Assembly: GCA_036003365.1 (NCBI GenBank)
Contig: DASYSL010000004.1
Span: forward strand, 1 to 60,695
DNA from: Candidatus Eiseniibacteriota bacterium
GTDB lineage: Bacteria; Eisenbacteria; RBG-16-71-46; DASYSL01
Length of the DNA stretch: 60,695 nt
Reading direction: 5' to 3'
A program made the translations under genes and the position numbers. Below the pieces are notes generated by a model, which saw only the letters and a program-made list of their open reading frames with translations, was not told where the DNA came from and did not search any database. This document shows, piece after piece, positions 2,274-60,695 of the stretch; position 1 is the stretch's first letter, and the number at the start of each line of letters is the position of its first letter.

Positions 2274-2277
2274 AGTC

Positions 2278-8644: not shown

Positions 8645-8647
8645 CGA

Positions 8648-40137: not shown

Positions 40138-40224
40138 GGGCGACCTCCTCGTTTTTCGCGGCTGAGAGAGCCGTACCCGGGGCGGGCGGCCCATTCAGTC
40201 TAGCAGGGGATGGCGGCGGCTCCG

Positions 40225-44905: not shown

Positions 44906-44908
44906 CGC

Positions 44909-45904
44909 ATGGCCTCTTCCGCGCCGGCACTCGTCACCGATCCCCGCTCGATCTTCGCCGAGGAGGTGCGGCGCGATCTGGCGCTGTCTCCGCGGCAGAT
45001 CCAATCCAAGTACCTGTACGACGCGTTGGGCTCGTCACTCTTCGAGACCATCTGCCGGTTGCCCTGGTACAAGATCACGCGCGCCGAGCGCGAGCTGCTC
45101 GAGCGGCGGGCGCGCGAGATCGTGGCGGCGCTGCCCGGTCGCATCGCGTTCGTCGAGCTGGGCGGCGGCAACGGCGAGAAATTGGGCATCCTGCTCGAGG
45201 AATTCGTGCGCCGCGGCCGGCGCGCGCGGCGTGCCAACGTTCACCTGATCGACATCAGCGAGGCGGCGCTCGAGCAATCCGAGCAGCGGCTCTCGCGCTG
45301 GGAGCACGTTTCGGTCGTCGGACATCGCGCCACGTATGAAGAAGGTCTGCGCGAGGCGGCCAGGCGGCGCCCCGAGGGCGAGCGCTGGCTCGTGCTCTTC
45401 CTCGGATCCAACATCGGGAATTTCGATCCACCCGCGGCGCAAGACTTCCTGCGCCAGATTCGCGCCGCGCTCCAGCCCGGTGACTTCCTGCTCCTGGGCG
45501 CCGATCTCGTGAAGCCTGCCGAGGAGCTGGCCCTGGCCTACGACGATCCGCTGGGGGTGACGGCGGCGTTCAATCTCAACTTGCTGGTGCGCATGAACGC
45601 CGAGCTGGGGGCTGATTTCGACCTCGAGGGCTGGGAGCATCGTGCGATCTGGAACGCCGAGGCGTCGCGCGTCGAGATGCGCCTGGTGAGCCGCCGTCCC
45701 CAAACCGTGCGCATCCCGGGAGCCGACATCGAGGTGCGCTTCCGCACCGGCGAGTGGATCTGGACCGAGAGCTCCTACAAGTTCGAGGCTCTCGGCGCCT
45801 GCCGGATGGGGGAGGCATCGGGTTTTCGGACGCTGACCCAATGGATCGAGCCCGAAGCGCGTTTCGCCCTCACATTGTTCGAGGTCACTGAACCGGAGCG
45901 CTGA
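44909..45904 (+). CDS. egtD: L-histidine N-alpha-methyltransferase EgtD
   Basis: Motifs: SKYLYDALGSSLFETICRLPWYKITRAERELL, FVELGGGNGEKL, LGSNIGNF. It lies directly after egtB. Confidence 0.85.
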   Translation: MASSAPALVTDPRSIFAEEVRRDLALSPRQIQSKYLYDALGSSLFETICRLPWYKITRAERELLERRAREIVAALPGRIAFVELGGGNGEKLGILLEEFVRRGRRARRANVHLIDISEAALEQSEQRLSRWEHVSVVGHRATYEEGLREAARRRPEGERWLVLFLGSNIGNFDPPAAQDFLRQIRAALQPGDFLLLGADLVKPAEELALAYDDPLGVTAAFNLNLLVRMNAELGADFDLEGWEHRAIWNAEASRVEMRLVSRRPQTVRIPGADIEVRFRTGEWIWTESSYKFEALGACRMGEASGFRTLTQWIEPEARFALTLFEVTEPER

Positions 45905-46199: not shown

Positions 46200-47045
46200 A
46201 TGAAGCGGATTCGCTACAACAGTCTGGCGCTCGCCGTCATCGCGATCTGTAGCGTGATCGCGGTCGGCGCCGGTGTCGCGCATGCGACGCCTGTGATCAA
46301 CGGCGCCATCATGTACCCACGTGTCTTCAACGACTGTCCGGTCAGCACCTTGAATCCCGGACCAGTCGCTTACCCGGCTTTGATCCATATCGACGAGCAC
46401 GATCTCATCTGCGCGGGCGGAGCCAACCTGCACGTGTGGGATCTCTCGAGCGACGGCGGCGCCTCGTCGGCGATCTTCAACAACAAGGACGCCTTCACGA
46501 TCTCCGCCACCGTGACGCTGCACCGGGCGCCAAGCACCGTGGCTGAAGAGGTAGGCCTGCGCGTGTGCCCGTGGTGGGATCACAATGCCAACGGCTTCTT
46601 CAACATGCGGCTTCCGGACGGCGAGATCGCCTGCTTCGGCGGCGTGCTACCGTTCTTCTCCTTTACGGGCACCTTCGGCGTCCTTGCGCAGTCCGACGTG
46701 CCGGCCCGTCAGACGATCATCTACAACCCTCACTGCAACACGAAGGATGATCCGGCCACCATCGAGTACATCCTGGATCTCCCTCAGGGTCACTTCGACA
46801 GCGGTCCTCTGCCCTTCACCAATTGCACGGCGGGCGAGGAGGCCCATGGCTGCTACGGCATCATGGACGACGCGCGCGTCGGCGGCCGGTTGCAGAACGA
46901 CATGTTCCCGCCGTTCGCGGGCGACCCCGCGGCCAATAACGGCGTGGATTACAACGACATCGTCTACACGATCAACCAGCCTTCGGATTGCCCGGTGCCG
47001 ACGAACAACTCGACCTGGGGCAACATCAAGGCTCAGTACCGGTAG
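46200..47045 (+). CDS. Secreted Cys-rich protein of unknown function
   Basis: ATG 46200 is preceded by GGAAAGGGGAAG. Signal peptide (AVGAGVAHA). The protein has ten cysteines and no recognisable domain. GC is lower than in the neighbours. The C-terminal tail reads STWGNIKAQYR. Confidence 0.55.
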   Translation: MKRIRYNSLALAVIAICSVIAVGAGVAHATPVINGAIMYPRVFNDCPVSTLNPGPVAYPALIHIDEHDLICAGGANLHVWDLSSDGGASSAIFNNKDAFTISATVTLHRAPSTVAEEVGLRVCPWWDHNANGFFNMRLPDGEIACFGGVLPFFSFTGTFGVLAQSDVPARQTIIYNPHCNTKDDPATIEYILDLPQGHFDSGPLPFTNCTAGEEAHGCYGIMDDARVGGRLQNDMFPPFAGDPAANNGVDYNDIVYTINQPSDCPVPTNNSTWGNIKAQYR

Positions 47046-47300: not shown

Positions 47301-48332
47301 ATGGCGACCATCAAGGACGTGGCTCGCGATGCGGGCGTCTCGGTGGCGACGGTGTCGCGTGTCTTCAACGACAGCGGCCTGGTCAGCGAGGACACGCGTC
47401 GCACGGTGCTCGATGTGGCGGCCAAGCTCAACTACTGGCCGAACGGCGTCGCCCGCAGCCTGATCACGAGCCGCACCCACGCGCTCGGCGTCCTCTTGCC
47501 CGATCTCGCGGGCGAGTTCTTTTCTGAGGTCATTCGCGGCATCGACCTGGCGGCACGCGCCCGCGGCCTGCACCTGCTCGTTTCGAGCTCGCACGCCGAC
47601 ACGCGCGAGCTGGTGAGCGCGTTGCGCTCGCTGCGCGGGCGCATCGACGGGCTCATCGTCATGGCGCCCGACGTCGACGCGCCCTCGGCCATCCGCGCGA
47701 GCGCCGGCGACTTTCCCATCGTGCTCGTCGATCCCGGCTACGGGGTCGAGGAGTTCGACACGGTCTCCATTGCCAACCATGAAGGCGCGCAGGCCGTGGT
47801 GCGCCATCTGCTGTCGCTCGGGCATCGCCGCGTCGCCACCGTGACGGGTCCGCTCAGCAACATCGACGCCGAGCAGCGGCTGGCGGGCTATCACGCCGCC
47901 ATGCGCGCGGCCGGCGGCGAGATCGCGTCCGATCTCGTGATCCACGGCGATTTCTCGGAGGCTTCGGGACGCGCGGCGGGCGCGGCCATCGCCGCCATGC
48001 AGCCGCGTCCGACCGCGGTCTTCGCCGCCAACGACTACATGGCCGCCGGCGTCATGGCGGCACTCGGCGAAGCCGGCGTGCGCGTGCCCCAGGACGTCGC
48101 GGTCGCCGGTTTCGACGACATTCCCATCGCCCGTTACCTGACACCGCCTTTGACCACAGTCCACGTGGGGCTCCTGGAGCTCGGCGAGCGAGCAGTGAGC
48201 CGCCTCGTCGAGATCCAGAGCGGCCGCGATTCCGCGGTGCCCCAGCACGATGTTCTGTCCACCACCCTGGTGGTACGCCGCTCTTGCGGCGCGCCCTCGG
48301 GCGAGCCCCTGATGGGGAAGGCCCGATCGTGA
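47301..48332 (+). CDS. LacI family transcriptional regulator
   Basis: ATG 47301. MATIKDVARDAGVSVATVSRVFN is the HTH. A periplasmic-binding-protein-like sugar-binding core follows (VPQDVAVAGFDD). Confidence 0.9.
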   Translation: MATIKDVARDAGVSVATVSRVFNDSGLVSEDTRRTVLDVAAKLNYWPNGVARSLITSRTHALGVLLPDLAGEFFSEVIRGIDLAARARGLHLLVSSSHADTRELVSALRSLRGRIDGLIVMAPDVDAPSAIRASAGDFPIVLVDPGYGVEEFDTVSIANHEGAQAVVRHLLSLGHRRVATVTGPLSNIDAEQRLAGYHAAMRAAGGEIASDLVIHGDFSEASGRAAGAAIAAMQPRPTAVFAANDYMAAGVMAALGEAGVRVPQDVAVAGFDDIPIARYLTPPLTTVHVGLLELGERAVSRLVEIQSGRDSAVPQHDVLSTTLVVRRSCGAPSGEPLMGKARS

Positions 48333-48343: not shown

Positions 48344-50260
48344 ATGAGAGCAGTGCGAATCGCCGCCCTCGTGCTGTGCGCGGGGCTCCTCGGAGCTTCG
48401 CTGGCGCATGCGCAAGGAGCGCTCAAGAACTCGATCTGGGCGCGCTCGCTGAACGGTGCGTCGATCACGCTCGACGGCGTGCTGGACGAGCCACAGTGGG
48501 CGCAGGCCGAGTCAGTCTTGATTCGTTATGGAGTCGACAACGGCGTTCCGGGAAGCGGCTGGAAGCCCGAGGGCGGCCTGCCGCTACACGACTCGACGTA
48601 CTGTTGGGTCAAGTTCCTGGTCGACACCGCCAACAACCAGCTCTATCTCGGCTTCACCGTGCGGGACAGCTCGGTCGGCGGCTCGATCAACTTCAACGAG
48701 ATGGACGGCTTCCTGATGAATCTCAAGGATCACTCGAACGCGGCGCGACCCGCGCCCTCGGGCGAGTACCAGTATTCGTGGTGGGATCCGGGCGACACCT
48801 GCTGTGCCATGAATGCCGGGAAGCTGCCTCACGTCGTTTCCGGGCGCTGGGGTAATGCGGACCCCTCCAACACCCCGCGCACGCCGGAGCAGATCGCCGC
48901 TTTCGACGGCCGTACCCGGGTGCGTGGCATCTCCAACAGCGACGCCGTGCCCGACACGGGATACACGACCGAGCTGCGCATCGATCTGACCTCCGTCGGT
49001 GTGAACGCCGCCAATCCCAACGGCGACATCGTGGAGTGGAACTGCTCGGTCTACGATGCCGACTGGGAGTGGCTGAGCCCGCCCAATCCGTTCCGCGCCG
49101 GATACAACCGCGGATGGCTGGAAGACCCGTGGGGCAATGTCGCGTGGTACGACGAGGTGCGCATTCACGTGAAGCCGAGCGTGACGGTGAGCTCGGGTCC
49201 CGTGCCGGCGCTCGACCCGGAGATCCGCGTGCCCAACGGGCAGAACTTCGCGACGCCGGTGATCGATGGCCATCTCACCGACGCGATATGGGCGGCCGCG
49301 CCGTTCTTCGATATCCAATATGGCAACGATGCCTTGCGCGCCAGCTATCCGGGCGCCGGGCCCTGGCGCTCGGGTCAGTTCCAGCCCACGGTGAATGGCG
49401 GCCAGCAGTTCGTGGCCGACCCCGGGAGCGCGCGCTTCTACTACTTCTTCAAGGCCGACTCGCTCTTCCTGGGCTTCGACGTGAACGACGCGTACGTCGG
49501 CAATCATCCGGTGGAAGACCGGATGGACGGCTTCATCGTGAGCTTGAACGACTACACGGCGCGCAATCCGGATCACAATCTCGCGCCGCGGCGTCTCGAG
49601 TTCAGGGTGGGGACGGGCGGAGCCACGGTGAAGCAAGGCTATCTGCCTCTCTTGACCGACACGCTGCTCACCTCGGCCTGCGTCCTTGCGCTCAAGCCGG
49701 GGACGACCGTCGACACCACCGGCTTCGACACCGACCAGGGCTACACGGCGGAGATGAAGATCGACCTGACCAAGATCGGCTACCCGCATGGTCTGGCCGA
49801 CGGGACGCTGTGGCTCGGAGTCGACTATTACGACGGCGACACCTTCACCGACGCGACGCAGAGCTACGCCACGCGCACCTGGTTCTTCCGCGAGAGCGAC
49901 GCCTGGTGCTGCCCGGTGTGGGCCTACATGGACCCGGGCAACCTCGTGGTCGCGGTAGGAGACCAGGTGCCGAAGTACGGACAGTTCGCGCTCTTGGGCA
50001 GCTATCCGAACCCGGCCGTGTCGCAGGCCACGATCCGCTATTCGCTGCCAGAGGCGAGCGACGTGATGCTGGAGGTTTATGATGTGAAAGGCAGGCTCGT
50101 CGATCGCCGGGATCTGGGCCGTATGCAGGCCGGAGTGCAGCAGACCCCGTTGCGCTACGAAGGTCTCTCCGGCATCCACTTCTACCGGTTGAGCTTCATC
50201 AATCCCGTGACGGGCCACCAAACCGCGACTTTGGCCGGCAAGGTGATGCTCATTCAGTGA
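48344..50260 (+). CDS. Secreted protein with two CBM9/DOMON-like modules and a T9SS/FlgD-Ig-like C-terminal domain
   Basis: ATG 48344 is preceded by GAGGAGG. Signal peptide (ASLAHAQ). LDGVLDEPQWAQAE and IDGHLTDAIWAAAP are DG.LDE..W..A-type starts of CBM9-like modules. The C-terminus reads YPNPAVSQATIRYSL...VYDVKGRLV...KVMLIQ. Confidence 0.65.
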   Translation: MRAVRIAALVLCAGLLGASLAHAQGALKNSIWARSLNGASITLDGVLDEPQWAQAESVLIRYGVDNGVPGSGWKPEGGLPLHDSTYCWVKFLVDTANNQLYLGFTVRDSSVGGSINFNEMDGFLMNLKDHSNAARPAPSGEYQYSWWDPGDTCCAMNAGKLPHVVSGRWGNADPSNTPRTPEQIAAFDGRTRVRGISNSDAVPDTGYTTELRIDLTSVGVNAANPNGDIVEWNCSVYDADWEWLSPPNPFRAGYNRGWLEDPWGNVAWYDEVRIHVKPSVTVSSGPVPALDPEIRVPNGQNFATPVIDGHLTDAIWAAAPFFDIQYGNDALRASYPGAGPWRSGQFQPTVNGGQQFVADPGSARFYYFFKADSLFLGFDVNDAYVGNHPVEDRMDGFIVSLNDYTARNPDHNLAPRRLEFRVGTGGATVKQGYLPLLTDTLLTSACVLALKPGTTVDTTGFDTDQGYTAEMKIDLTKIGYPHGLADGTLWLGVDYYDGDTFTDATQSYATRTWFFRESDAWCCPVWAYMDPGNLVVAVGDQVPKYGQFALLGSYPNPAVSQATIRYSLPEASDVMLEVYDVKGRLVDRRDLGRMQAGVQQTPLRYEGLSGIHFYRLSFINPVTGHQTATLAGKVMLIQ

Positions 50261-50325: not shown

Positions 50326-52950
50326 ATGGATCGATCGCTGCGCTCGGGCGCGATCTTCCTTCTCGCCGGAATCATCCTTTTGCTGCTCGGCTCTCCGGCC
50401 ATCGCCGGCACCACGGGCAAGCTCTCCGGGCGTGTCACCGACGCCAAGAAAGCCCCGCTCCCCGGCGTCACGATCTTGCTCGTCGGGCAAAGGCTCGGCG
50501 CCTTCACCGACACCGACGGCCGCTATTCGATTCTCAACATTCCGGCCGGCACCTACGACGTGAAGTTCCAGATCCTGGGTTACCGGCCGGTGACGATCAC
50601 CGGCGTGCAGGTGAACGCCGACAACACCACCTCGGCCAATCTCTCGATGGAAGAAGCGCCCGTCGAGATGAAGGAGATCGTGGTCAGCGGCAAGAGCCCG
50701 GTGGTGGACGTGCATCAGACGAGCACCATTGCCACCGTGAACAAGGAGCAGATTGCCACGCTCCCGGTGCAGGAGCTGAGCGAGATCGTGAACCTGCAGG
50801 CGGGTGTGGTCGACGGCCACTTCCGCGGCGGCCGCCTCGGTGAGGTGCAGTACCAGGTCGACGGCATCTCGATGAACAACGCCTACGACAACACGGCGAG
50901 CCTCAAGCTCGACCGCTCGCTGCTCGAGGAAGTGCAGGTCATCAGCGGCACCTTCGACGCCGAGTACGGGCAGGCGATGAGCGGGGTGGTGAACGCGGTG
51001 CTCAAGCGGGGAAGCAAGAACCTGCACTGGGACGGCGAGGCGTTCTCGGGCGGGTTCGTCTATCCCGGGCACGCCGAGGAGCGCAATCTCGAGTACGCTT
51101 TCCGGCCCACGGGCGTGCGCAACTTCCAGCTCAGCTTGACCGGTCCCACACCACAGAAGCAGACGCTCTTCCTGGCCAACTTGCAGCGCTACTACTTCGA
51201 CGACTTCGTCTACGGCAACCGCGTCTTCAATCCCGACGGCACCTTCGGCGACAATCACGAAGTGCCGCTTGGCCAGACGCGGCAGTGGTCGGGCGTAGCG
51301 AAGATCTCGAACTCATCGATCCACAACGTCGAGGCCAGCTACCAGGCGATCTTCAACACCATCGACGGCCAGCGCACCGATTACTTGTTCCGCTATGACC
51401 CCGACGGGCTCTCCAAGCAGCACACGTACTCGATCGTGCACGGCCTCGATTGGACGCACACGCTGAGCAAGAAGTCGTTCTACAGCGTCGGCCTGCGCCA
51501 GAACTACTTCAACTACGACGATCACGTGTACGAGGACCTCTACGATACCCTCTACGACCGCGCGGGTCCGCCGCACGGAAATCCCGCGCTCGGGACCGAC
51601 AATCCCTACGACGCCGGCGTGTCGCTCGCCCGCTTCCACCAGAACACCAACGCTCTGATCTTCAAGGGTTCGTTCGTGACCCAGATCACCAACGATCACC
51701 AGGTGAAGGCGGGGGGCGAATTCCAGCTTCCGAGGCTCGAGTTCGGCAACCTGGGCTACCTGATTCCCACCACGATCGCGGGCCGCGAAACGCTGCAACG
51801 GGTCGAGAGTGATCCCGCGAAGCAGCTGCCCGGGCTGGCCGTCTACCATCCGATTCAAGGCGCCGCCTATGCGCAGGAGCAGACGGAGTGGAACGATCTG
51901 AACCTGCGCGTCGGTCTGCGCCTCGACTACTTCGACGCGCGCAGCAGCGTCCCGAGCAATCTCTCGAATCCGGGCAACACCATCGAGGGCGCGCCGCCGT
52001 CACATGCGGTGGCGACGACCAAAAAGGTGACGCTCTCGCCGCGCATCGGCGTGTCCTATCCGGTGAATACGCGCGCCTCACTCTACTTCGCGTACGGGCA
52101 TTTCTATCAATTACCGCCCTTGGGCACGATCTTCACCAACGCCGACTACTCGGTGCTCGCCAACATCTCGGCCGGAGAGGACCTGGCCACGAGCAAGATT
52201 GGCACCATCGGCAATCCCGACATCAAGCCCGAGCGCACGGTTCAGTACCAGGCGGGTTACAAGCAGGCGATCAACGAGAATCTGGGGGCCGATGTCACCG
52301 TGTTCTACAAGGACATCCGTGATCTTCTCGGCACCGAGATCCTCTCGACATACAACGACGCCGAGTATCCGCGTCTCGCCAACGTCGACTTCGGCAACGT
52401 GCTTGGCGTCACGGTCGCCTTCGATCTACGGCCCAAGGGCTTGCTGGGAGGCAGCGTCGATTACACGTTCCAGCTCGCGGAAGGAAATACCAGCGATCCG
52501 CACGAGACCGCGACCCGCGCCGAAGCCGGGCTCGACGCCAACCCGCGCCTCATTCCTTTCAACTGGGATCAGCGGCACACGCTCAATCTCACGGGCACGC
52601 TCGCCAAGCCGGCGAACTGGAGCGCGAGCGCGATCTTCCGCTTCGGGAGCGGCCAGCCGTACACGCCGGCCGGCGAGTTCAGCGGCGGCACGAGCGAGAA
52701 CTCGGGACGCAAGCCGAACGCCTATCTGCTGGACCTGCGCGGGGAGAAATCGCTGCGGGCGACGGGTTTCCAGATGGGCCTGTTCGCGCGTATCTTCAAC
52801 GTATTCGACACCCGCTACTTCAACGGCACGGTTTACGACGACACCGGCAGTCCCTACTACACACTCAACCCCAACGCTCCGCCCGATCCGACCCGCTATT
52901 ACACGCCGCGTCGCATCGAGGTCGGGCTGCGCGCCGCAGCACTCAAATAG
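50326..52950 (+). CDS. TonB-dependent outer-membrane receptor with carboxypeptidase-regulatory-like N-domain
   Basis: ATG 50326. Signal peptide. GKLSGRVTDAKKAPLPGVTILLVG...GRYSILNIPAGTYDV is the CarboxypepD_reg-like domain. Plug motifs: LPVQELSEIVNLQAGV, VDGISMNN, FDAEYGQAMSGVVN. A long beta-barrel region follows. Confidence 0.9.
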   Translation: MDRSLRSGAIFLLAGIILLLLGSPAIAGTTGKLSGRVTDAKKAPLPGVTILLVGQRLGAFTDTDGRYSILNIPAGTYDVKFQILGYRPVTITGVQVNADNTTSANLSMEEAPVEMKEIVVSGKSPVVDVHQTSTIATVNKEQIATLPVQELSEIVNLQAGVVDGHFRGGRLGEVQYQVDGISMNNAYDNTASLKLDRSLLEEVQVISGTFDAEYGQAMSGVVNAVLKRGSKNLHWDGEAFSGGFVYPGHAEERNLEYAFRPTGVRNFQLSLTGPTPQKQTLFLANLQRYYFDDFVYGNRVFNPDGTFGDNHEVPLGQTRQWSGVAKISNSSIHNVEASYQAIFNTIDGQRTDYLFRYDPDGLSKQHTYSIVHGLDWTHTLSKKSFYSVGLRQNYFNYDDHVYEDLYDTLYDRAGPPHGNPALGTDNPYDAGVSLARFHQNTNALIFKGSFVTQITNDHQVKAGGEFQLPRLEFGNLGYLIPTTIAGRETLQRVESDPAKQLPGLAVYHPIQGAAYAQEQTEWNDLNLRVGLRLDYFDARSSVPSNLSNPGNTIEGAPPSHAVATTKKVTLSPRIGVSYPVNTRASLYFAYGHFYQLPPLGTIFTNADYSVLANISAGEDLATSKIGTIGNPDIKPERTVQYQAGYKQAINENLGADVTVFYKDIRDLLGTEILSTYNDAEYPRLANVDFGNVLGVTVAFDLRPKGLLGGSVDYTFQLAEGNTSDPHETATRAEAGLDANPRLIPFNWDQRHTLNLTGTLAKPANWSASAIFRFGSGQPYTPAGEFSGGTSENSGRKPNAYLLDLRGEKSLRATGFQMGLFARIFNVFDTRYFNGTVYDDTGSPYYTLNPNAPPDPTRYYTPRRIEVGLRAAALK

Positions 52951-52958
52951 GAGGTAGG

Positions 52959-55900
52959 TTGTTCCGTTCGCCCCGTGCCCGCTTGCTCGCCTTCACCTTC
53001 TCGGTCTTGGCGGCGCCTGCGTTGATGGTGCTGTCGGCGCGGGCGCAGTCGCCGCCGCCCGACAAACGGGGGCGCATCGACGCCGAGCGTGTCGGGCAGC
53101 ACGACGCGAACCGCATCCGCACCCTGTTCTGGAACTTCGGCATGGTGGGCGATTACCCGTCCGATCCCGGAAACGTGGATCTGACCACGTTCCACTCCGT
53201 CGAGGTGCCCAAGGGCTCGGGCATGAACTACTCCGACGGCATCACGCCCTTCGTGCTGGCCAAGATCAACCAGACCGACGGCTCCGAGGCCTACATCATG
53301 GAGACGGGCTACCGCGAGCGGCAGATCGCGAGCCCGATCACCAACCAGATCATGCGCTTCGAGCCGCGCCCCGGGTTCTTCCAGCCCGATCCCAACGTCA
53401 ATCGCGGGCGCTCGCCGGCCATCAGCAGCGATCCGCGGACGTGGCCGGACGCCTGGCCGGACAAGGCGAACGATCCCGACGATCCGGGCTGGCATGACAG
53501 CTGGGACGGCTACTTCGGCAAACGCGCCTCGGCCGATCAGGAAAGCTTCACGGTCATGGACGACAACTTCTACGACGCGTGGCTCTACAACCCCGACAGC
53601 ACCGACCACACGCGGCGCGGTCTCGGGCTGCGCGTCGAGGTGCGCGGGTTCCAGTGGGCGAACCCGCAGGCCGGGAACGTCATCTTCTGGCATTACGACA
53701 TCACGAACGAAGGCACGACCGACTACAACGACAACATCCTCTTCGGCCTTTACATGGACTCGGGCGTGGGCGGCTCGCAGATCGGCTGCGATCCGGGCCC
53801 CTACGAGTCCGACGACGACAACGCCTTCTTCGACCGCTCGAGCGGGCTCAATCTCGTGTACACGTGGGACAACTACGGACACGGGGTCGATCTCATCAGC
53901 AAGTGCGACAAGACCGGCTATCTCGGCTACGCGTATCTCGAGACGCCCGGAAATGCATTCGACCACGTCGATGACGATGGCGACGGCATCACCGACGAGG
54001 CGCGTGACAGCGGCCCGGGGGAAGTCATCACCGGCCAGGAGAACATCCGAGCCTACGTCAGCACGCATTACGATCTGACCAAGTTCGAGGCGTTCTACGG
54101 CCCCCTGGAGCAGCGCCCGGCCTACAAGAATGGCCGCTGGTGGACGGGCGACGAGGACATGGACTGGAACCAACCCCTGGACGACGTGGGCGCCGACGGC
54201 GTGGCGGGCACGCACGACACGGGCGAGGGCGACGGCATGCCCACGGCGGGCGAGCCCAACTTCGATCAGACCGATCTCAACGAGTCGGACCAGATCGGCC
54301 TCACCGGCTTCAAGATGAACCGCATTCGCTCCGCCGTGCCGGGCGGGCCGACGGACAACATCCTGTTCTACACCGAGAGCCAGGACTGGCCCGCCAAGCT
54401 CTATGCCCAGTTCACCGATCCCATCACCAGCAACCGTTTCGATCCACCGCTCGCCCAGAACTACAACATCGGATTCCTCTTCGCCTCGGGACCGTTCTCG
54501 CTCAAGGCGGGCAAGCACGAGCGCTTCAGCCTGGCCCTCGCCTTCGGCGGCGACCTGGACGAGCTGCGCGAGAACGTGAAGACCGTGCAGCAGATCTACA
54601 ACGCGAACTATCAGTTCGCGGTGCCGCCCAAGGCGCCCACCGTGACGGCGGAGCCGGGCGACGGCCGTGTGACGCTGTCGTGGACCGACGACTCGGAGCG
54701 CAGCGTCGACCCGGTGAGCAGCATCTTCGATTTCGAGGGTTACCGGATCTATCGCTCCACCGACCCGGAGTTCACCGATCCGCAGGTGATCTCAAACGGT
54801 CAGGGAACCGGGCCGCAGCCCGGCAATGGCAAGCCCTTGGCGCAGTTCGATCTCGTGGACGGCAAGAAGGGCTTCTCGAAGCGCACGATCAACGGCGTCG
54901 CCTACTGGCTGGGCTCGGACACCGGCATCACCCACACGTTCACCGACACGACAGCCGTGAACGGGCAGCAGTACTACTACGCGGTGACCGCCTACGACTT
55001 CGGCTATGAGCCGGGAGGCGAGTCGCTCGGCTTCTATCCTTCGGAGAACGCGATCTCCGTCCAGCGCACCACGCGCGGGGGGCTCATCCTACCCAAGAAC
55101 GTGGTCGCCGCGCGGGCCAATCCACGGGTGCCGGGTTTCGTGCCGGCCCACGCCGACAGCGCCGTGCACGTGGCCGGGAACGGCACCGGACACGTCGACG
55201 TTCAGGTCGTCAATTCCGACCTCGTGCCGGATGGTCACCTGTTCACCATGCGCTTCTCCACGCCGTCTCCGGACAGCGTGCGCGCCTCGACGTACAGCTT
55301 GAAGGACAGCACGACCGGCGAGGTGCTGTTCACCAAGGGCTCCGACATCTCCGCACAAGGGATTGGCCCCGTGGGCTCGGGCCTCTTGCCCATCGTGAGC
55401 GAGCCGCTGGCTCCCTATCCCGACACGCTGCGCAGCGGATGGGACGCCGGAAGCGCGACCGACGCCAAGGTCAATGTCTCGTACCTGCAGATCCTCGATC
55501 CCAACTACAAGCGCCCCGGCTACCCCGACGATATGACGGTCACCTTCGCGGACGCCGTGGTCGACACCGGCGTGCAGATCAACCCGATCCCGGCGACACC
55601 GGCCAAGTTCTTCGTGGTCGCGCACACCGATTCGGGCGACCTGCGCTTGAAGTTCAAATTCAAGGACACCGACCACGACGGTACCCTCAGCAGCCCGAAC
55701 GACCAGATCGACATTCTCTGCCCGGCTCCGGTGAGTGTCGACTCGCAAGTTACGTGGCGGCTGCAGCTGGCGTCGACGCCGACCAAGAAGCCGCACGCCG
55801 GGGATGTGTATCAGCTCCGCCTGATCCGGCCGCTCAATGACACCGACGTGTTCACCTTCAAGACGGGTGCGGCGCGCGTCGATGCCGCACTGGCGGCGCA

Positions 55901-56219
55901 GCAATACCAGGCCGATCCGTACGTCGTGCCCAATCCCTACGTGGGTGCTGCCAGCTTCGAGCCGGCGCGCTTCGCCATCTCGGGCCGCGGCGAGCGGCGC
56001 GTGGAATTCCGGAACGTGCCGCTGAACGCGACGGTCCGGGTGTACACGGTGCGCGGCGAGCTGGTGCAGACCCTGCACCAGGATGGCGGCACGGACGGCT
56101 TCGTGGCCTGGAATCTGCGCACCAAGGACAACCTCGACCTGGCCGCGGGCTTGTACATCTATCAGGTGGAAGCGCCGGGACAGCGCACGTTCACCGGAAA
56201 GATGGCGGTGATCAAATGA
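52959..56219 (+). CDS. 1086-aa secreted protein of unknown function with Asp-rich Ca-binding-like motifs, an FN3-like module and a T9SS/FlgD-Ig-like C-terminal domain
   Basis: TTG 52959 lies after AGGAGG. Signal peptide (MVLSARAQ). Features: DHVDDDGDGITDEARD, DDVGADGVAGTHDTGEGDGMPTAGEPNFDQTDLNESD, and PKAPTVTAEPGDGRVTLSWTDD...YRIYRS (FN3-like). The C-terminus reads VPNPY...VRVYTVRGELV...GLYIYQV...KMAVIK. Confidence 0.7.
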   Translation: MFRSPRARLLAFTFSVLAAPALMVLSARAQSPPPDKRGRIDAERVGQHDANRIRTLFWNFGMVGDYPSDPGNVDLTTFHSVEVPKGSGMNYSDGITPFVLAKINQTDGSEAYIMETGYRERQIASPITNQIMRFEPRPGFFQPDPNVNRGRSPAISSDPRTWPDAWPDKANDPDDPGWHDSWDGYFGKRASADQESFTVMDDNFYDAWLYNPDSTDHTRRGLGLRVEVRGFQWANPQAGNVIFWHYDITNEGTTDYNDNILFGLYMDSGVGGSQIGCDPGPYESDDDNAFFDRSSGLNLVYTWDNYGHGVDLISKCDKTGYLGYAYLETPGNAFDHVDDDGDGITDEARDSGPGEVITGQENIRAYVSTHYDLTKFEAFYGPLEQRPAYKNGRWWTGDEDMDWNQPLDDVGADGVAGTHDTGEGDGMPTAGEPNFDQTDLNESDQIGLTGFKMNRIRSAVPGGPTDNILFYTESQDWPAKLYAQFTDPITSNRFDPPLAQNYNIGFLFASGPFSLKAGKHERFSLALAFGGDLDELRENVKTVQQIYNANYQFAVPPKAPTVTAEPGDGRVTLSWTDDSERSVDPVSSIFDFEGYRIYRSTDPEFTDPQVISNGQGTGPQPGNGKPLAQFDLVDGKKGFSKRTINGVAYWLGSDTGITHTFTDTTAVNGQQYYYAVTAYDFGYEPGGESLGFYPSENAISVQRTTRGGLILPKNVVAARANPRVPGFVPAHADSAVHVAGNGTGHVDVQVVNSDLVPDGHLFTMRFSTPSPDSVRASTYSLKDSTTGEVLFTKGSDISAQGIGPVGSGLLPIVSEPLAPYPDTLRSGWDAGSATDAKVNVSYLQILDPNYKRPGYPDDMTVTFADAVVDTGVQINPIPATPAKFFVVAHTDSGDLRLKFKFKDTDHDGTLSSPNDQIDILCPAPVSVDSQVTWRLQLASTPTKKPHAGDVYQLRLIRPLNDTDVFTFKTGAARVDAALAAQQYQADPYVVPNPYVGAASFEPARFAISGRGERRVEFRNVPLNATVRVYTVRGELVQTLHQDGGTDGFVAWNLRTKDNLDLAAGLYIYQVEAPGQRTFTGKMAVIK

Positions 56220-57235
56220 GATCCGCGCGCGCGCTGCTTCTGGGATTCGTCCTCACGGCCACTGCCTCCGCGGCCCACGCGCAATCCAAGACCGGCACGG
56301 CCTTCGGCGACTTCCTGCTCATCGAGCCGAGCGCGCGCGCCACCGGCATGGGCAACGCCGGCGTGACGCTGCTCGACGACCAGCAGGGGGTGTACTACAA
56401 CCCGGCGGCGATCGCGGAGATCGAGCAGTACGGCGTGGCGTTTTCGCACAGCGCCTGGCTCGCCGACATCAACTACAACTACGCCGGCGTGGGCGTACCG
56501 ATGGGCAAGATCGGCAACGCCTACTTCAGCTTGACGGCCCTGTCGTCGGGCGACATCGAGGTGCGCACGGTCGCCCAGCCGCTGGGAACGGGCGAGTTCT
56601 TCCACGTCACCGACGTCGCGGCCGGCCTGGGCTACGGGCTGCGCGTGACCGACCGCTTCTCGGCCGGCCTCGAGGCCAGCTTCGTGCAAGAGACGATTTG
56701 GCACACGTCGGCGAGTGCCGTGGTCTTCAACATGGGCACGGTCTATCGCCTCTCGGAAGAAGGCCTGCACCTGGGCGCCAGCATTTCCAACTTCGGCACC
56801 GATGCCAGCTTCAGCGGCCGCGATCTCGGCGTCACTTTCGATCAGGACCCGAACGTCAACGGCGACAACGGCACGTTGCCGGCTTCCCAGCTCACGGACG
56901 CGTTCCCCTTGCCGGTGCTGTTTCGCGTGGGCCTGAGCTTGCCGCGCAAGATCGGCCCCAATGGTCAGCTCCTCATGGCCGTGGACGCGTTTCACCCCGC
57001 GGACAACACGGAGAGCGTGAGCCTGGGCACGGAGTACGCGTACCGCAACGCGTTTGCGGTGCGCGCCGGCTACCAGAACCTGTTCCAGAAGGACTCGGAG
57101 GTCGGCCTCACGCTGGGCGCCGGCCTCAAGGGCAAGCTCGGCGGCCACGGCAACGGCTACGCGATCGATTACGCGTGGGCCGACCAGGGTCGATTGAACG
57201 ACACGCATCGCATCACGGTGGCGTTACACTTCTAG
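56216..57235 (+). CDS. PorV/PorQ-family-like outer-membrane beta-barrel
   Basis: ATG 56216 overlaps the upstream stop (ATGA). Signal peptide (ASAAHAQ). GDFLLIEPSARATGMGNAGVTLLDDQQGVYYNPAAI is the characteristic N-terminal motif. Amphipathic strands alternate and the terminal residue is Phe (VALHF). Confidence 0.7.
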   Translation: MRSARALLLGFVLTATASAAHAQSKTGTAFGDFLLIEPSARATGMGNAGVTLLDDQQGVYYNPAAIAEIEQYGVAFSHSAWLADINYNYAGVGVPMGKIGNAYFSLTALSSGDIEVRTVAQPLGTGEFFHVTDVAAGLGYGLRVTDRFSAGLEASFVQETIWHTSASAVVFNMGTVYRLSEEGLHLGASISNFGTDASFSGRDLGVTFDQDPNVNGDNGTLPASQLTDAFPLPVLFRVGLSLPRKIGPNGQLLMAVDAFHPADNTESVSLGTEYAYRNAFAVRAGYQNLFQKDSEVGLTLGAGLKGKLGGHGNGYAIDYAWADQGRLNDTHRITVALHF

Positions 57236-57277: not shown

Positions 57278-58903
57278 ATGCGAACGATTCGATCGAAGAC
57301 TCTCTGGGTCTTGCTGGCGACGGTCTGTCTGGCCGCGCCGGCGCGCGCCCAGCTCTCCGACGGCGAGATCTTGGACAACATCCAGCACGCCGCCTTCAAT
57401 TACTTCTGGAACGAGGCGAACCCGACCTTGGGCATGATCAAGGACCGCAGCACCATGGGCTCGCCGTGCAGCATCGCCGCCGTCGGCTTCGGGCTTTCCT
57501 CCATCTGCGTGGGCGTGGACCACGGCTGGGTGACGCGTGACGACGCGCGACAGCGCGTGTACAACACGCTGCACACCTTCTACACCTGGCCGCAGGGCAC
57601 GGCCACCTCGAACACCATTGGCTATCGCGGCTTCTTCTATCACTTCCTCGACATGAACTCGGGCTTCCGCATGCCGGGCTGGGATCCGGAGCTCTCCACC
57701 ATCGACACTGCTCTGCTCATGGCCGGCGTGCTCGACGCGGGCGCCTATTTCAACGATCCCGACGACACGACGGAAGTGGCCATCGCCACCATGGCCGACT
57801 CTCTCTACGACCGAATGGACTGGACGTTCTTCCGGAATGGAACCCAGCGTCTCTACATGGGCTGGAAGCCGGGCGGCGGGGGCTTCAGCGGCTTCGGGCA
57901 GTGGCAGGGCTACAACGAGGCCATGATCCTGGAGATCGAGGCGCTCGGATCGACCACGTTCAAGGTGGACACGACGTTGTGGAATCCGGGCTGGACCTCG
58001 ACGTACAGCTTCGGCAACCAGTACGGCTACAACTACATCATCTTCCCGCCGCTCTTCGGCCATCAGTACTCGCACTGCTGGATCGACTTCCGCAACATCC
58101 AGGATGCCTACATGCGCAATCCGACGCATGGCATCACCTACGCCGAGAACTCGCGGCGGGCCACCTTGGCGCAGCACGCCTACTGCATCGCTGATCCGGG
58201 GCACTGGGTGGGGTACAGCGATTCGCTCTGGGGGATCACGGCGGGTGACGATCCCAACGTGGGCTACACGGCGCGTGGCGCGCCGCCGCCGCAGACCGAC
58301 AACGGCACCTTGTCGCCCACGGCGGTCGCGGGCTCTTTGCCGTTCGCGCCCGAGGTCTGCATGCCGACGCTCCGCAACATGTACAACAACTACCCGCTGC
58401 TCTGGGGCACGTACGGGTTCAAGGACGCGTTCAATCTGAGCAAGGTGCCGGCCTGGTACGACACCGACTTCCTCGGCATCGACCAGGGCCCGATCGTGAT
58501 GATGATCGAGAATTACACCGGCGAGGGCATCTGGAAACGCTTCATGCAGATCCCCGCGATCCAAAACGGCCTCACGCGCGCCGGTTTCCTGCCGGCGAGC
58601 AATACCACCGCCGTGGGCTCGCCGCCGGCGCTCACGAGCGCGGTCGCGCTCGCGGCCAGTGAGCCGAGTCCGATCACGGGCCGCGGCATTCTGCGCTTTC
58701 GTCTCGCGCAGGCGGGACGCGTGCGGCTCGTGCTCTACGACGCGCGCGGGCGGCAGGAGCGCGTGCTGATCGACGACGAGCGGCCGGCAGGCGAGGGCTC
58801 GGTGGCTCTCGATGCCGCGGGCCTGCGCCAGGGCGTGTATCTCGCGCGCATCGAGACGGCGGCCGGCTCGGCAGCGCGCAAAATCGTGGTGCTGGATCGC
58901 TGA
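57278..58903 (+). CDS. DUF3131/GH144-like glycoside hydrolase (endo-beta-1,2-glucanase family) with T9SS/FlgD-Ig-like C-terminal domain
   Basis: Signal peptide (AAPARAQ). Motifs: FNYFWNEANPTLGMIKDRS, GFFYHFLD, ELSTIDTALLMAGVL, GYNEAMILE, FGHQYSHCWIDFRN, WGITAGDDPNVGY, YGFKDAFN, LGIDQGPIVMMIENY. The C-terminus reads PSPITGRGILRFRL...LYDARGR...GVYLARI...KIVVLDR. Confidence 0.8.
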   Translation: MRTIRSKTLWVLLATVCLAAPARAQLSDGEILDNIQHAAFNYFWNEANPTLGMIKDRSTMGSPCSIAAVGFGLSSICVGVDHGWVTRDDARQRVYNTLHTFYTWPQGTATSNTIGYRGFFYHFLDMNSGFRMPGWDPELSTIDTALLMAGVLDAGAYFNDPDDTTEVAIATMADSLYDRMDWTFFRNGTQRLYMGWKPGGGGFSGFGQWQGYNEAMILEIEALGSTTFKVDTTLWNPGWTSTYSFGNQYGYNYIIFPPLFGHQYSHCWIDFRNIQDAYMRNPTHGITYAENSRRATLAQHAYCIADPGHWVGYSDSLWGITAGDDPNVGYTARGAPPPQTDNGTLSPTAVAGSLPFAPEVCMPTLRNMYNNYPLLWGTYGFKDAFNLSKVPAWYDTDFLGIDQGPIVMMIENYTGEGIWKRFMQIPAIQNGLTRAGFLPASNTTAVGSPPALTSAVALAASEPSPITGRGILRFRLAQAGRVRLVLYDARGRQERVLIDDERPAGEGSVALDAAGLRQGVYLARIETAAGSAARKIVVLDR

Positions 58904-58910
58904 GCGTGTG

Positions 58911-60695
58911 ATGGGCTCCGCCTCCGTCACTCAGGCCGCGCATCGCACGCGCAAACGACTCGCGATCTTTCCGGCGGGCGTGCTTTCGAACGGCGATTAC
59001 GTCTCCGTCGTCACCGCGGCGGGCACCGGTGGATCGTACTGGCGCGGTGACGCGCTCACGCGCTGGCGGCCCGATCGCACGGCCGACACGGACGGCGTTC
59101 TCTTCTGGCTGCGCGAGCGCGACCGCGGCGTCATGCGGACCTTGACGCGCTTCCCGTTCGGGGGCGAGGCCGAGCGCGAGCAGGTGTCGTGGCGCCCCGG
59201 CGGGTTCACGTTCGAGCGCGTCGTCGACGACCTCGAGACGCAAATCGAGATCGCTGTCGCGCCCGACCATCCCCTCGAGCTGCGCCGCGTGCGCTTGAAG
59301 AACCTGCTCGAGAAGCCGCGCGCGCTCGAGCTCGCGGCCACCATGGACATCGTGCTGCAGCGCGCCGAGGCCGACGCCTCGCATCCCGCCTTCTCCAAGC
59401 TCTTCGTCGAGACCGCCTGGGACGCCGGTCGTGGCGCGCTCGTGGCGGGCCGGCGGCCGCGCGATCGCGATCAGCGCCATCCCTGTCTCGCCGCCGCGCT
59501 GCACGGCCCTGGCGCTCTCGAGTTCGAGACCGACCGGGCACTCCTGTGGGGGCGCGGAAACTTCTCGGCTGCGCCCGAGCTGTTGCAGCGTGGGACCGCA
59601 TTGCCGGGCACGACCGGCAACGTGCTCGATCCGCTCTTCTGCTTGCGCCGCCGCTTCGACCTCGAGCCCGGTGGCAGCGTGAGCTTCACGCTGGCGCTGG
59701 CGGCGGGGGAGAGCTGGCAGGGCGCGCTCGAAGCTCTCGCCACGGCCCGGACCGCGAGTGCTGTCGACTCGTTCTTCGCCGCGGCCGAAGCGCACGAGTT
59801 CGGCTTGCTCGATCGCTTCGGCCTCGACGAGAAGACCGCGGGGGGCGCGCAGTCGTCGTGGGTGGCGCAGCAATTCGGTGTGCCGGGACTGCCGCGTGGC
59901 GCGGGCTTGCCGGACTGGAAGTCGATCCGGCGTTTCGGCGCGCAGCCGGGCGAGCCCTTCGTGTTCTTCCACGCCAAGAAGTCCGGCTCGGCGCGCGTCG
60001 CCGAGGAGCTCTTGCGCCGCCACGAGTACCTGCGCGCCAAAGGGCTGCCGTCGAAGCTCATCCTCGTGTACGAGACCATCGCGCGCTCGCCGTGGATCGA
60101 GAAGGCAGCGGAGACGATGGGCGCTTGGGTGGGAACGGCGGACGCGGCCGGCGTGGCCGCGCTCGAAGCCGCCGCGGCCTTCGTGGCGCGCGACGAAGCG
60201 TTGGACATCGACGGCTGGCGCGACGATCCCGAGTGGGAGACGCCGCGAGCCGCGAGAGTGGCGGCGCCCGAGCTGGTGCCGCCCGCCGACGAGGTGCTCG
60301 CGGAGTTCAACGGCTACGGCGGGTTCTCCGCCGAAGGCGACGAGTACGTGGTGCGCTTCGAGCGTGAGCCCTCGGGCGCCCTGCGCCTGCCGCCGCAGCC
60401 GTGGGTGAACGTGATCGCGCGCGAGGGCTTCGGCTTTCTCGCGAGCGAGACGGGAAGCCTCAGCACCTGGAGCCAGAACAGCCGCGAGCACCGGCTCACG
60501 CCGTGGTCGAACGATCCCGTCCTCGACCCGCACGGCGAAGCCTTCTACGTGCGCGACGAGGAGAGCGGCGCCTTCTGGTCGGCGACGCCGGGGCCAGCAC
60601 CGGGCCCGGGCCGCTACGAGACGCGGCACGGCATCGGCTACAGCCGCTATCGCTACACGGGGCGCGACATCGAGCACGAGCTGCGTCTGTTCCTG
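58911..60695 (+). CDS. GH94-like protein (1,2-beta-oligoglucan phosphorylase / cyclic-beta-1,2-glucan-synthase phosphorylase-region type); 3' end beyond the window
   Basis: This ORF is not in the supplied track. The frame is open for 595 codons from ATG 58911 (or GTG 58908) to the window end, with G/C at nearly every third position. Motifs: GVLSNGDYVSVVTAAGTGGSYWRGDALTRWRPDRTADTDGVLFWLRERD and FNGYGGFSAEGDEYVV...PQPWVNVIAREGFGFLASETGSLSTWSQNSREHRLTPWSNDPVLDPHGEAFYVRDEESGAFWS. No signal peptide is present. Confidence 0.8.
   Translation, partial: MGSASVTQAAHRTRKRLAIFPAGVLSNGDYVSVVTAAGTGGSYWRGDALTRWRPDRTADTDGVLFWLRERDRGVMRTLTRFPFGGEAEREQVSWRPGGFTFERVVDDLETQIEIAVAPDHPLELRRVRLKNLLEKPRALELAATMDIVLQRAEADASHPAFSKLFVETAWDAGRGALVAGRRPRDRDQRHPCLAAALHGPGALEFETDRALLWGRGNFSAAPELLQRGTALPGTTGNVLDPLFCLRRRFDLEPGGSVSFTLALAAGESWQGALEALATARTASAVDSFFAAAEAHEFGLLDRFGLDEKTAGGAQSSWVAQQFGVPGLPRGAGLPDWKSIRRFGAQPGEPFVFFHAKKSGSARVAEELLRRHEYLRAKGLPSKLILVYETIARSPWIEKAAETMGAWVGTADAAGVAALEAAAAFVARDEALDIDGWRDDPEWETPRAARVAAPELVPPADEVLAEFNGYGGFSAEGDEYVVRFEREPSGALRLPPQPWVNVIAREGFGFLASETGSLSTWSQNSREHRLTPWSNDPVLDPHGEAFYVRDEESGAFWSATPGPAPGPGRYETRHGIGYSRYRYTGRDIEHELRLFL

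Follow-up and report, generated by a model that had tools for sequence, protein, structure and literature searches.

The analyzed window, a 60,695-nucleotide stretch of DASYSL010000004.1 (Candidatus Eiseniibacteriota bacterium), contains a co-directional gene cluster for beta-1,2-glucan use on the forward strand. A secreted 281-aa protein of unknown function (46200..47045, +) had no Pfam or NCBIfam hit but represents a recurrent accessory gene, as homologues at 35-42% identity occur in 35 of the 80 orthologous loci, at varying positions and with up to three tandem copies in one locus. The cluster itself opens with a LacI-family transcriptional regulator (47301..48332, +; Pfam LacI HTH, 68 bits; Peripla_BP_3, 132 bits), syntenic in 45 of 80 orthologous loci, followed by a CBM9-like secreted protein (48344..50260, +), a candidate surface glycan binder that lies directly upstream of the receptor in 59 of 80 loci. 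The CBM9_1 hit of this protein is weak (19.3 bits, below cutoff); in paralogous loci, the same position holds other proteins with a CBM and a CTD. Next come a TonB-dependent receptor (50326..52950, +), a 1086-aa secreted multidomain beta-rich protein here termed BIG (52959..56219, +), and a 339-aa outer-membrane barrel (56216..57235, +). Downstream lie a GH144-type endo-beta-1,2-glucanase homologue (57278..58903, +; PF10091, 257 bits) and a GH94 (1,2-beta-oligoglucan phosphorylase-like) gene (58911..60695, +; GH94 supersandwich domain, 293 bits) that is cut by the window end. On the native contig, the GH94 gene encodes 1280 aa and is followed by a second GH144, an ABC substrate-binding protein, and two permeases. 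Both the CBM9-like and GH144 proteins narrowly pass the NCBIfam cutoff for the T9SS type-A sorting domain (TIGR04183, 23.7 and 24.5 bits, respectively; cutoff 23).

The preliminary description of this region, namely a receptor followed 8 nt later by a large protein with a T9SS C-terminal domain and a translationally coupled PorV/PorQ-like barrel, flanked by two further CTD cargo, was confirmed in its anatomy. The receptor stop TAG lies at 52948-52950, a GGAGG follows at 52950-52954, and BIG begins at a TTG at 52959, while the BIG stop overlaps the ATG of the barrel gene in ATGA at 56216-56219. One qualification is that the BIG C-terminal domain does not pass any HMM cutoff, and its identity as a CTD rests on a profile-profile comparison. 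The organism is Eisenbacteria-like rather than Gemmatimonadota, and the triad is embedded in a conserved locus of seven or more genes for beta-1,2-glucan. The two alternatives offered in the preliminary description, a cargo-dedicated PorV paralogue or a three-part capture module, are not exclusive, and the evidence fits both together; the suggestion that the module replaces SusD remains an inference.

To examine the domain content of the three proteins, profile searches were conducted against Pfam and NCBIfam. The receptor contains a TonB_dep_Rec barrel (PF00593, 99 bits), a plug (PF07715, 27.6 bits), and an N-terminal carboxypeptidase-regulatory-like domain (PF13620, 70.6 bits). In contrast, the SusC/RagA model TIGR04056 scored only 71.8 bits against a cutoff of 368, and only over the N-terminal 120 residues. 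The barrel contains the motif GDFLLIEPSARATGMGNAGVTLLDDQQGVYYNPAAI and is a PorV/PorQ-family protein (NF033709, 198.6 bits; cutoff 90), rather than a member of another outer-membrane protein family. However, it reaches none of the PorV (84.5 of 250), PorQ (90.2 of 220), or PorV2 (55.6 of 325) equivalog cutoffs. Its only relative in the PDB is PorV from F. johnsoniae (chain 6h3i_F, E 2.2e-10).

BIG matched no Pfam or NCBIfam family, although its own family spans 3,708 clusters at 50% identity (E<1e-3). Orthologues are 59-68% identical across phyla, and BIG is the most conserved gene in 60 of 64 loci, as expected of a protein constrained by several protein partners. An AF2 model was obtained with pLDDT 86.7 and pTM 0.80. 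The most conserved part comprises Asp-rich DxDxDG-type loops at residues 335-347 and 398-444, and an FN3-like domain is found at about residues 556-690. BIG has no recognizable carbohydrate-binding module, and its conserved residues are mostly Asp, Gly, Trp, and Pro in loops, which says nothing about glycan binding. The C-terminal domain (55911..56216, +; about residues 985-1086) scored only 16.6 bits with TIGR04183, and four paralogues gave no NCBIfam hit at all, the CTD model included. However, HHalign comparison of 62 BIG-family C termini with eight bona fide CTDs indicated homology to type-A domains (probability 98.6%, E 1e-15). This variant domain carries a family-specific 15-residue insertion at about residues 1000-1014 (EP..FAISGRGERR), absent from all eight bona fide CTDs and lacking in the canonical CTDs of neighboring cargo. 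The insertion is a plausible specificity element for a cognate barrel.

The order receptor, BIG, barrel recurs in nearly all of the 157 related loci long enough to show it and in 6 of 6 distant paralogues, and is thus not a chance arrangement. The triad recurs in hundreds of genomes from many phyla related to Bacteroidota, with occurrences across Eisenbacteria, Krumholzibacteria, Ignavibacteria, KSB1, Calditrichia, Kryptonia, Zhuqueibacterota, Marinimicrobia, Balneolaceae, and Rhodothermales. In related loci, an in-frame start lies within a few nucleotides of the upstream stop, with median distances of +1 nt for receptor to BIG and −4 nt for BIG to barrel, both of which are lower bounds. The three proteins also diverge together, as correlations of identity to the window proteins across 142 loci were r=0.97, 0.86, and 0.90. 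The surrounding enzymes are variable: GH144 and GH94 are found here, GH130 (mannan-type) plus an ABC transporter in Balneolaceae, and GH13 (starch-type) plus CBM20 in another paralogous locus. In a published Rhodothermus marinus locus, alginate lyases accompany a receptor followed by a shorter (2,181-nt) T9SS sorting-domain gene of untested relation to BIG, then a PorV/PorQ-family gene (PMC9530828). This variability argues for a generic transport or capture role rather than one enzyme activity. Some paralogous triads, however, sit among FG-GAP/ASPIC, GDSL, and TPR genes with no obvious glycan enzyme, and the substrate class may therefore be wider than polysaccharide.

These observations suggest that the three genes encode the outer-membrane core of a polysaccharide-utilization-type locus, and probably an unrecognized way of building a nutrient-capture machine. 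As inferred from gene content, the TonB-dependent receptor imports oligosaccharides released at the surface by the CTD-bearing GH144, with a periplasmic GH144, an ABC importer, and a GH94 phosphorylase completing the pathway. That the three proteins act together in uptake is considered likely. BIG is inferred to be exported by T9SS, although core T9SS genes were not seen within the window, the only part of the genome in which they could be sought. In the favored reading (probability approximately 0.55), the BIG CTD is not cleaved and sorted to lipopolysaccharide but is captured and held by the cognate barrel encoded immediately downstream, such that BIG stays non-covalently anchored next to the receptor. 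This is inference, as no experiment or co-fold supports physical contact among the three proteins. More tentatively, BIG may act as the extracellular partner of the receptor for substrate capture or as a lid, the role played by SusD and the surface glycan-binding lipoproteins in Bacteroidia, but with an unrelated beta-rich, probably calcium-stabilized fold. The upstream CBM-plus-CTD protein could alternatively be the true glycan binder, which would leave BIG with another role.

Among alternative explanations, the barrel may be a dedicated shuttle or secretion chaperone that collects BIG, and perhaps the neighboring CTD cargo, from the T9SS translocon and hands it to the attachment machinery, with BIG then covalently linked to the surface or released and acting independently of the barrel. 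PorV itself is described as a shuttle (Glew et al. 2017), the barrel belongs to the same family, and the neighboring genes also encode CTDs. However, this possibility appears unlikely, as the neighbors have canonical CTDs without the BIG-specific insertion and do not obviously need a special barrel, the barrel is strictly paired one-to-one with BIG and with the receptor in every paralogous locus, and its co-divergence with both fits a stable partner better than a transient carrier. It is doubtful that the barrel works as a FadL-type channel, for example for hydrophobic aglycones or small oligosaccharides, alongside the receptor, with its position next to BIG reflecting co-regulation only. The PorV family is a branch of the FadL fold, and Pfam gives near-equal weak hits to Toluene_X (28.8 bits) and PorV (31.5 bits). 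However, the Toluene_X hit is below its own cutoff (29.7), the NCBIfam PorV-family score is far stronger, the N-terminal motif aligns with PorV, and the barrel gene nearly always follows BIG directly, often with overlapping stop and start, whatever the substrate of the locus.

It is similarly doubtful that BIG is an enzyme, i.e., a new glycoside hydrolase, lyase, or transglycosylase acting at the cell surface. The N-terminal two thirds are highly conserved, and Foldseek detected domain-level similarity (probability 1.0) between the model and GH94 phosphorylases, GH116, and dextran dextrinase. However, the TM scores are low (0.13-0.26), only a minority of the query is covered, and no catalytic-domain match was shown, although the model could not be split to tell which domains of those enzymes are matched. 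No Pfam catalytic family matched any of 44 members, and the same family, with the same invariant residues, occurs in loci for beta-1,2-glucan, mannan-type, and starch-type substrates, which is unlike a linkage-specific enzyme. Finally, BIG and the barrel are very unlikely to be divergent equivalents of core T9SS attachment components (PorU with PorV, or PorZ with PorQ) that happen to lie in a sugar operon: although BIG is about the size of PorU and PorZ and PorU are the top two Foldseek hits (E 3e-7 and 1e-5), the TM scores are only 0.07-0.13, so that only shared Ig and CTD domains match, NCBIfam PorU and PorZ score 17.3 of 420 and 16.6 of 260 over the tail only, there is no peptidase C25 domain, paralogues are many (two in one Ignavibacteriales genome assembly [MAG] and two in tandem in one locus), and the pair nearly always follows a TonB-dependent receptor, with a sugar-type regulator gene nearby in many of the loci with upstream sequence.

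The arrangement is visible, uninterpreted, in two published gene clusters. The beta-1,2-glucanase (SGL) gene cluster of Ignavibacterium album (PMC8861115) is, from its described gene content (GH144 twice, GH94, an ABC transporter, and a TonB-dependent transporter), most likely the orthologous locus, and an I. album-labelled genome assembly carries a BIG orthologue at 58% identity. The figure legend for the R. marinus alginate locus lists a TonB-dependent receptor, a T9SS sorting-domain protein, and a PorV/PorQ family protein in that order (PMC9530828). In neither paper are these three genes interpreted or tested; they are drawn as transporter or hypothetical genes, and only the soluble enzymes were characterized. 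In SusC/SusD-type polysaccharide utilization loci of Bacteroidia, as here, a TonB-dependent transporter with an N-terminal carboxypeptidase-regulatory-like extension is co-regulated with an adjacent gene for a surface-exposed partner, surface enzymes and binding proteins, and downstream periplasmic and cytoplasmic enzymes, and one module is reused with many different enzyme sets. In contrast, the present locus has no SusD, the receptor fails the SusC/RagA model, BIG is beta-rich, about twice the size of SusD, and without a SusD Pfam hit, surface proteins carry T9SS CTDs rather than lipoprotein signals, and there is an extra PorV-family barrel.

In the PorQ–PorZ and PorV–PorU pairs of the P. 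gingivalis T9SS attachment complex, a barrel of the same family holds a large surface protein by its uncleaved type-A CTD (PMC10202324), and PorZ and PorU are the best structural matches of BIG through shared Ig and CTD domains. However, those pairs are core secretion machinery rather than substrate specific and are not linked to a TonB-dependent receptor, and BIG has no sortase or propeller domains. The closest precedent for one cargo with one barrel encoded next to it is type-B CTD cargo with a cognate PorP/SprF barrel (e.g., SprB–SprF in Flavobacterium johnsoniae), in which the clustered barrel is proposed to anchor the cargo at the surface (PMC10202324). There, the CTD is type B as compared to a type-A variant here, the barrel is of the PorP/SprF rather than the PorV/PorQ family, there is no transporter partner, and the cargo are adhesins, not nutrient-uptake proteins.

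The window is 67% G+C and carries, between 47.3 kb and its end, one co-directional gene string on the + strand. This begins with a LacI regulator (47301-48332; Pfam LacI and Peripla_BP_3) and a CBM9-like protein (48344-50260), which has a weak CBM9_1 hit and a type-A C-terminal domain (CTD), and continues with a TonB-dependent receptor (50326-52950). The preliminary description had reported that this receptor is followed 8 nt later by a 1086-aa secreted protein with a T9SS-like CTD (here BIG, 52959-56219), whose stop overlaps the start of a PorV/PorQ-like barrel of 339 aa (56216-57235), and these features were confirmed. The receptor stop (TAG, 52948-52950) is followed by GGAGG and a TTG start at 52959, while the BIG stop and the barrel start share ATGA at 56216-56219. 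Downstream lie a GH144 gene (57278-58903; PF10091, 257 bits) and a partial GH94 gene (58911 onward; supersandwich domain). Both flanking proteins, CBM9-like and GH144, pass the NCBIfam type-A sorting-domain cutoff narrowly (23.7 and 24.5 bits, respectively, against 23). By inspection, the predicted signal-peptide cleavage sites of BIG (52959-53050; ..SARA|QSPP), the barrel (56216-56290; ..AHA|QSKT), GH144 (57278-57350; ..ARA|QLSD) and the CBM9-like protein (48344-48420; ..AHA|QGAL) all expose Gln at +1. This is the "Bacteroidetes Q-rule", which has been reported not to hold across the whole FCB group, although Ignavibacterium scored 77% in that analysis (PMC5837995), and which may extend to Eisenbacteria. 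A promoter and terminator scan of 45.8-60.7 kb returned counts at shuffle level and was uninformative for this lineage.

On the native contig, the gene string continues with the remainder of GH94 (1280 aa in full), a second GH144, an ABC substrate-binding protein, two permeases and a large enzyme with an F5/8 type C domain and a six-hairpin domain. GH144 is the endo-beta-1,2-glucanase family and GH94 includes 1,2-beta-oligoglucan phosphorylase, such that the gene content is that of a GH144 endo-beta-1,2-glucanase locus with a phosphorylase and a sugar importer. A cluster of very similar gene content is described in Ignavibacterium album, where a GH35 transglycosylase was characterised and the TonB-dependent transporter was only speculated to import sophoro-oligosaccharides (PMC8861115). 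Elsewhere in the window, positions 1-11252 (+) hold an exopolysaccharide or O-antigen type cluster containing an SLBB-domain exporter, a Wzz/GNVR chain-length protein, a flippase, two GT2 genes, a Wzy_C ligase/polymerase, a GT4 and an epimerase/dehydratase. Two adjacent ORFs of 464 and 331 aa at 43511-45904 (+) look, by eye only, like an EgtB-type sulfoxide synthase and an EgtD-type methyltransferase pair (ergothioneine synthesis).

The barrel belongs to the PorV/PorQ family (NCBIfam NF033709), scoring 198.6 bits against a curated cutoff of 90. In contrast, it falls far below the equivalog cutoffs for PorV (NF033710, 84.5 of 250 bits), PorQ (NF033711, 90.2 of 220) and PorV2 (NF052325, 55.6 of 325). 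Pfam hits to PorV (31.5 bits) and to FadL/TodX (28.8 bits, below cutoff) are both weak. A phmmer search against the PDB found only F. johnsoniae PorV (chain 6h3i_F, E 2.2e-10), in which the conserved N-terminal motif is shared, FLLIEPSARATGMGNAGV aligning to FLLVAADARAAGLGDQGV. The barrel is therefore a distinct subfamily of PorV-type barrels and not another outer-membrane protein family. The receptor carries CarboxypepD_reg (residues 33-108), Plug (132-221) and TonB_dep_Rec barrel (349-825) domains, and in this domain order it matches the SusC/RagA TonB-linked transporters; however, it scores only 71.8 bits against the subfamily cutoff of 368 (TIGR04056), with only residues 32-156 matching.

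BIG has no Pfam family and only faint C-terminal NCBIfam hits. A search of 5.8 billion proteins gave more than 1,900 homologues, of which the top 120 are 63-93% identical over the full length and every one that carries a name is "hypothetical". An exhaustive search of cluster representatives at 50% identity gave 3,708 clusters at E<1e-3 and 544 at E<1e-30, with paralogues being 33-44% identical and 1000-1600 aa long. None of 44 diverse members matches a Pfam family apart from a few weak CTD-type hits (3 to FlgD_ig and 2 to CHU_C), and a profile of BIG searched against the PDB found nothing (best E 0.068, to an FN3-like chain). The C terminus of BIG does not reach the curated cutoff for T9SS type-A cargo (TIGR04183, 16.6 bits against 23; no Pfam hit, including PF18962), and four paralogues gave no hit. 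However, HHalign comparison of a profile of the family's last 105 residues with eight bona fide type-A CTDs, taken from this window and from related loci, gave a probability of 98.6% and an E-value of 1e-15 over 80 columns. A 15-residue insertion (EP..FAISGRGERR, about residues 1000-1014) follows the first strand and is present in none of the canonical CTDs. BIG therefore ends in a variant type-A CTD.

An initial AF2 model of BIG built from 30 close orthologues was unusable (pLDDT 57.9, residues 1-560 below 50), whereas a 62-sequence alignment that included distant paralogues gave a confident model (pLDDT 86.7, pTM 0.80). The modeled protein is mainly beta and multidomain, with a beta-rich C-terminal unit at residues 1015-1085. 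Foldseek comparison of the whole, undivided model with the PDB gave only low-TM, domain-level resemblances, to PorZ (E 3e-7) and PorU (E 1e-5) with TM scores of only 0.07-0.13, to FN3 arrays, and to GH94, GH116 and dextran dextrinase enzymes (TM 0.13-0.26), leaving the nature of the N-terminal half vague. Residues 50-700 and the CTD are conserved, while residues 700-1000 vary in both orthologues and paralogues. The most conserved stretch (398-450) and another at 335-347 are Asp-rich DxDxDG-type loops which, by inference, may bind calcium.

To examine recurrence of the orthologous locus, one genome per species was scanned, and 520 relatives of BIG were found. The best 80 loci come from genome assemblies labelled Eisenbacteria, Krumholzibacteriia, Ignavibacteria, KSB1, Calditrichia, Kryptoniota, Zhuqueibacterota and others, at 59-68% identity, with one at 85% (L008, an Eisenbacteria genome assembly). 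By tblastn with the window's proteins, the cluster (LacI, CBM9-like, receptor, BIG, barrel and GH144, with or without a second GH144, GH94 and hyp46) is syntenic in nearly every locus where the contig is long enough. Median identities to the window proteins are 62% for BIG, 55% for LacI, 52% each for receptor, barrel and GH144, 47% for the CBM9-like protein and 39% for hyp46, and BIG is the most conserved gene in 60 of 64 loci. Hyp46 (46200-47045), a secreted 281-aa protein with no Pfam or NCBIfam hit, is a recurrent accessory gene of the beta-1,2-glucan locus, appearing in 35 of 80 loci at 35-42% identity and varying position, with three tandem copies in one genome (locus L048, 16021-19072). 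In two long-read genome assemblies, the GH144 orthologue matches in two or three frames (L023, 14341-15830; L024, 14298-15858), reflecting either frameshift sequencing errors or pseudogenes, although the triad of receptor, BIG and barrel upstream is intact.

The triad also recurs beyond this locus. A scan seeded with a 40%-identical paralogue (P0128) returned loci from Marinimicrobia, Balneolaceae, Rhodothermales, Ignavibacteriales, Melioribacter-like and Calditrichaceae genomes. In essentially all of those long enough to show it, a receptor (31-36% identical to the window's) precedes the BIG paralogue and a barrel (33-45%) follows it, without GH144. All six paralogous barrels tested score as PorV_fam (113-202 bits), and all are far below the equivalog cutoffs. 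Neighboring genes differ, being LacI, a CBM4_9-plus-CTD protein, an ABC transporter and two GH130 genes in a Balneolaceae chromosome and LamG or LTD proteins with CTDs elsewhere. Six further distant clusters were looked up individually, and all six are arranged as a CarboxypepD_reg receptor with plug and barrel, then BIG, then a 335-353-aa barrel. One of these lies beside GH13 amylases, CBM20 and LacI, while others lie among FG-GAP/ASPIC, GDSL and TPR genes, proteins with a CBM and a CTD, and SurA-like rotamase genes. Some triads (L160 and L161, from GCA_025450675.1 and GCA_025491055.1, 576-22125; L162; L166) lie among FG-GAP/UnbV_ASPIC proteins, GDSL esterases and TPR proteins rather than recognisable glycoside hydrolases, and the module may therefore serve substrates other than polysaccharides. 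In several paralogous triads, a 416-566-aa gene with PPIase hits (SurA-like rotamase; confident in two, sub-threshold in two) sits directly beside the triad (L109, 12536-14122; L153, 12279-13529; L164, 12246-13907; L165, 4343-6043) and may be a fourth, periplasmic component in some subfamilies.

Two complete triads of different subfamilies lie head to tail on a KSB1 contig (L139, MVCZ01000001.1, 3-13526), the second preceded by a CBM9-like gene, showing that the module duplicates and diversifies within one genome; one Ignavibacteriales genome assembly likewise has two triads on separate contigs (L104 and L105). Identities of the three proteins to those of the window co-vary across 142 loci (r=0.97, 0.86 and 0.90), although this is dominated by the split between orthologues and paralogues. 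An in-frame start lies within a few nucleotides of the upstream stop in most loci, with medians of +1 and −4 nt for the two junctions, which are lower bounds as the earliest possible start was taken.

No T9SS core gene (SprA/Sov, PorK, PorL, PorM or PorN) appeared among the window genes scanned, and no SprA-sized ORF occurs in 2.7 Mb of related loci, where the long ORFs are stop-free high-GC artefacts over the receptor and BIG genes; these searches did not extend to the rest of the genome. Indirect support for the pathway comes from at least five further proteins in the window with CTD hits. Two of the proteins with CTD-type tails lie far from the sugar locus, namely an NHL-repeat protein with a Por_Secre_tail hit at 37 bits and a second protein with a weak, sub-threshold DUF3466-like hit and a FlgD_ig-type tail (27687-28976 (+) and 38836-40194 (−)). 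The organism therefore appears to use CTD-dependent secretion broadly. T9SS was reported as restricted to Bacteroidetes in 2016 (PMC4793230), but later work notes possible T9SS in Ignavibacteriae and Fibrobacteres (PMC5837995), and reviews assign it to the FCB superphylum.

Full-text literature searches found no study that interprets this arrangement. The same gene order is visible, however, in the figure legend of the Rhodothermus marinus alginate locus, which lists a TonB-dependent receptor, hypA (a T9SS type A sorting domain protein, whose shorter gene of 2,181 nt may not belong to the BIG family) and hypB (a PorV/PorQ family protein) (PMC9530828). Glycan uptake in Bacteroidia is explained by SusC/SusD pairs and surface lipoproteins, whereas how the many sister phyla capture polymers at the surface is largely unknown; these include Ignavibacteria, Rhodothermia, Calditrichota, Marinimicrobia, KSB1, Eisenbacteria and Krumholzibacteria, which are abundant in soils, sediments and oceans. 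The module supplies a concrete, widespread candidate, involving a protein family with thousands of members and no Pfam or NCBIfam model, and recurring next to a receptor in loci for what may be at least four different polysaccharides, if the R. marinus alginate locus is included. Cultured carriers exist (I. album, probably M. roseus, and perhaps R. marinus), and better annotation of the three genes would improve automatic prediction of polysaccharide loci outside Bacteroidia, which currently relies on SusD.

The three genes form a conserved, co-evolving and probably co-translated outer-membrane module that is re-used with many substrate-specific gene sets, as expected of a transporter core. 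In the most economical mechanism, which is inferred from these gene-level observations, the receptor imports oligosaccharides, BIG is secreted by T9SS, its variant CTD is captured by the cognate barrel such that BIG stays anchored beside the receptor, and BIG serves as the substrate-capture or lid subunit. The preliminary description had proposed either a cargo-dedicated PorV paralogue or a three-part surface glycan-capture module replacing SusD, and this interpretation holds up as far as sequence analysis can take it, although the replacement of SusD remains an inference; the module is not a one-off but a widespread, unnamed architecture in the lineages related to Bacteroidia. A more far-reaching possibility, which remains tentative and is judged less likely than not, is that receptor, BIG and barrel form one stable tripartite complex, in which a T9SS-delivered protein, locked in place by its own PorV-family barrel through a coded insertion in its CTD, serves as the lid and substrate-capture subunit of a TonB-dependent transporter. 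This would make nutrient-transporter assembly depend on type IX secretion.

Other explanations remain possible. The barrel may be a transient shuttle for BIG rather than its anchor. Alternatively, the barrel may be a FadL-type channel, for which the FadL/TodX hit is weak and below cutoff while the PorV/PorQ family score is strong. BIG may also be an enzyme, given its resemblance to GH94, GH116 and dextran dextrinase, although this is at domain level and at low TM scores. Divergent PorU/PorZ machinery is considered very unlikely, BIG scoring 17.3 of 420 and 16.6 of 260 bits against the respective equivalog models, over the tail only, and not fulfilling the criteria of a peptidase C25 domain or two beta-propellers.

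The mechanistic precedent is provided by a review of T9SS effectors (PMC10202324), in which PorU and PorZ keep their CTDs and stay bound to PorV and PorQ, type-B cargo genes cluster with cognate PorP/SprF barrels that are proposed to anchor them, and cognate PorV-like barrels are speculated to protect CTDs from cleavage. If the proposed anchoring is correct, the known role of PorV-family barrels would be extended from general secretion components alone to substrate-specific anchors as well, with one barrel per transporter. The behavior of the module parallels that of SusC/SusD, but BIG and 43 relatives have no SusD-family hit, and the BIG model is predominantly beta rather than an alpha-helical TPR-like fold. 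As a lid, BIG would represent an independent solution to the SusCD "pedal-bin" problem, and the locus is best viewed as a TonB-dependent glycan-uptake locus that, by inference, borrows the cognate-barrel anchoring principle of the T9SS.
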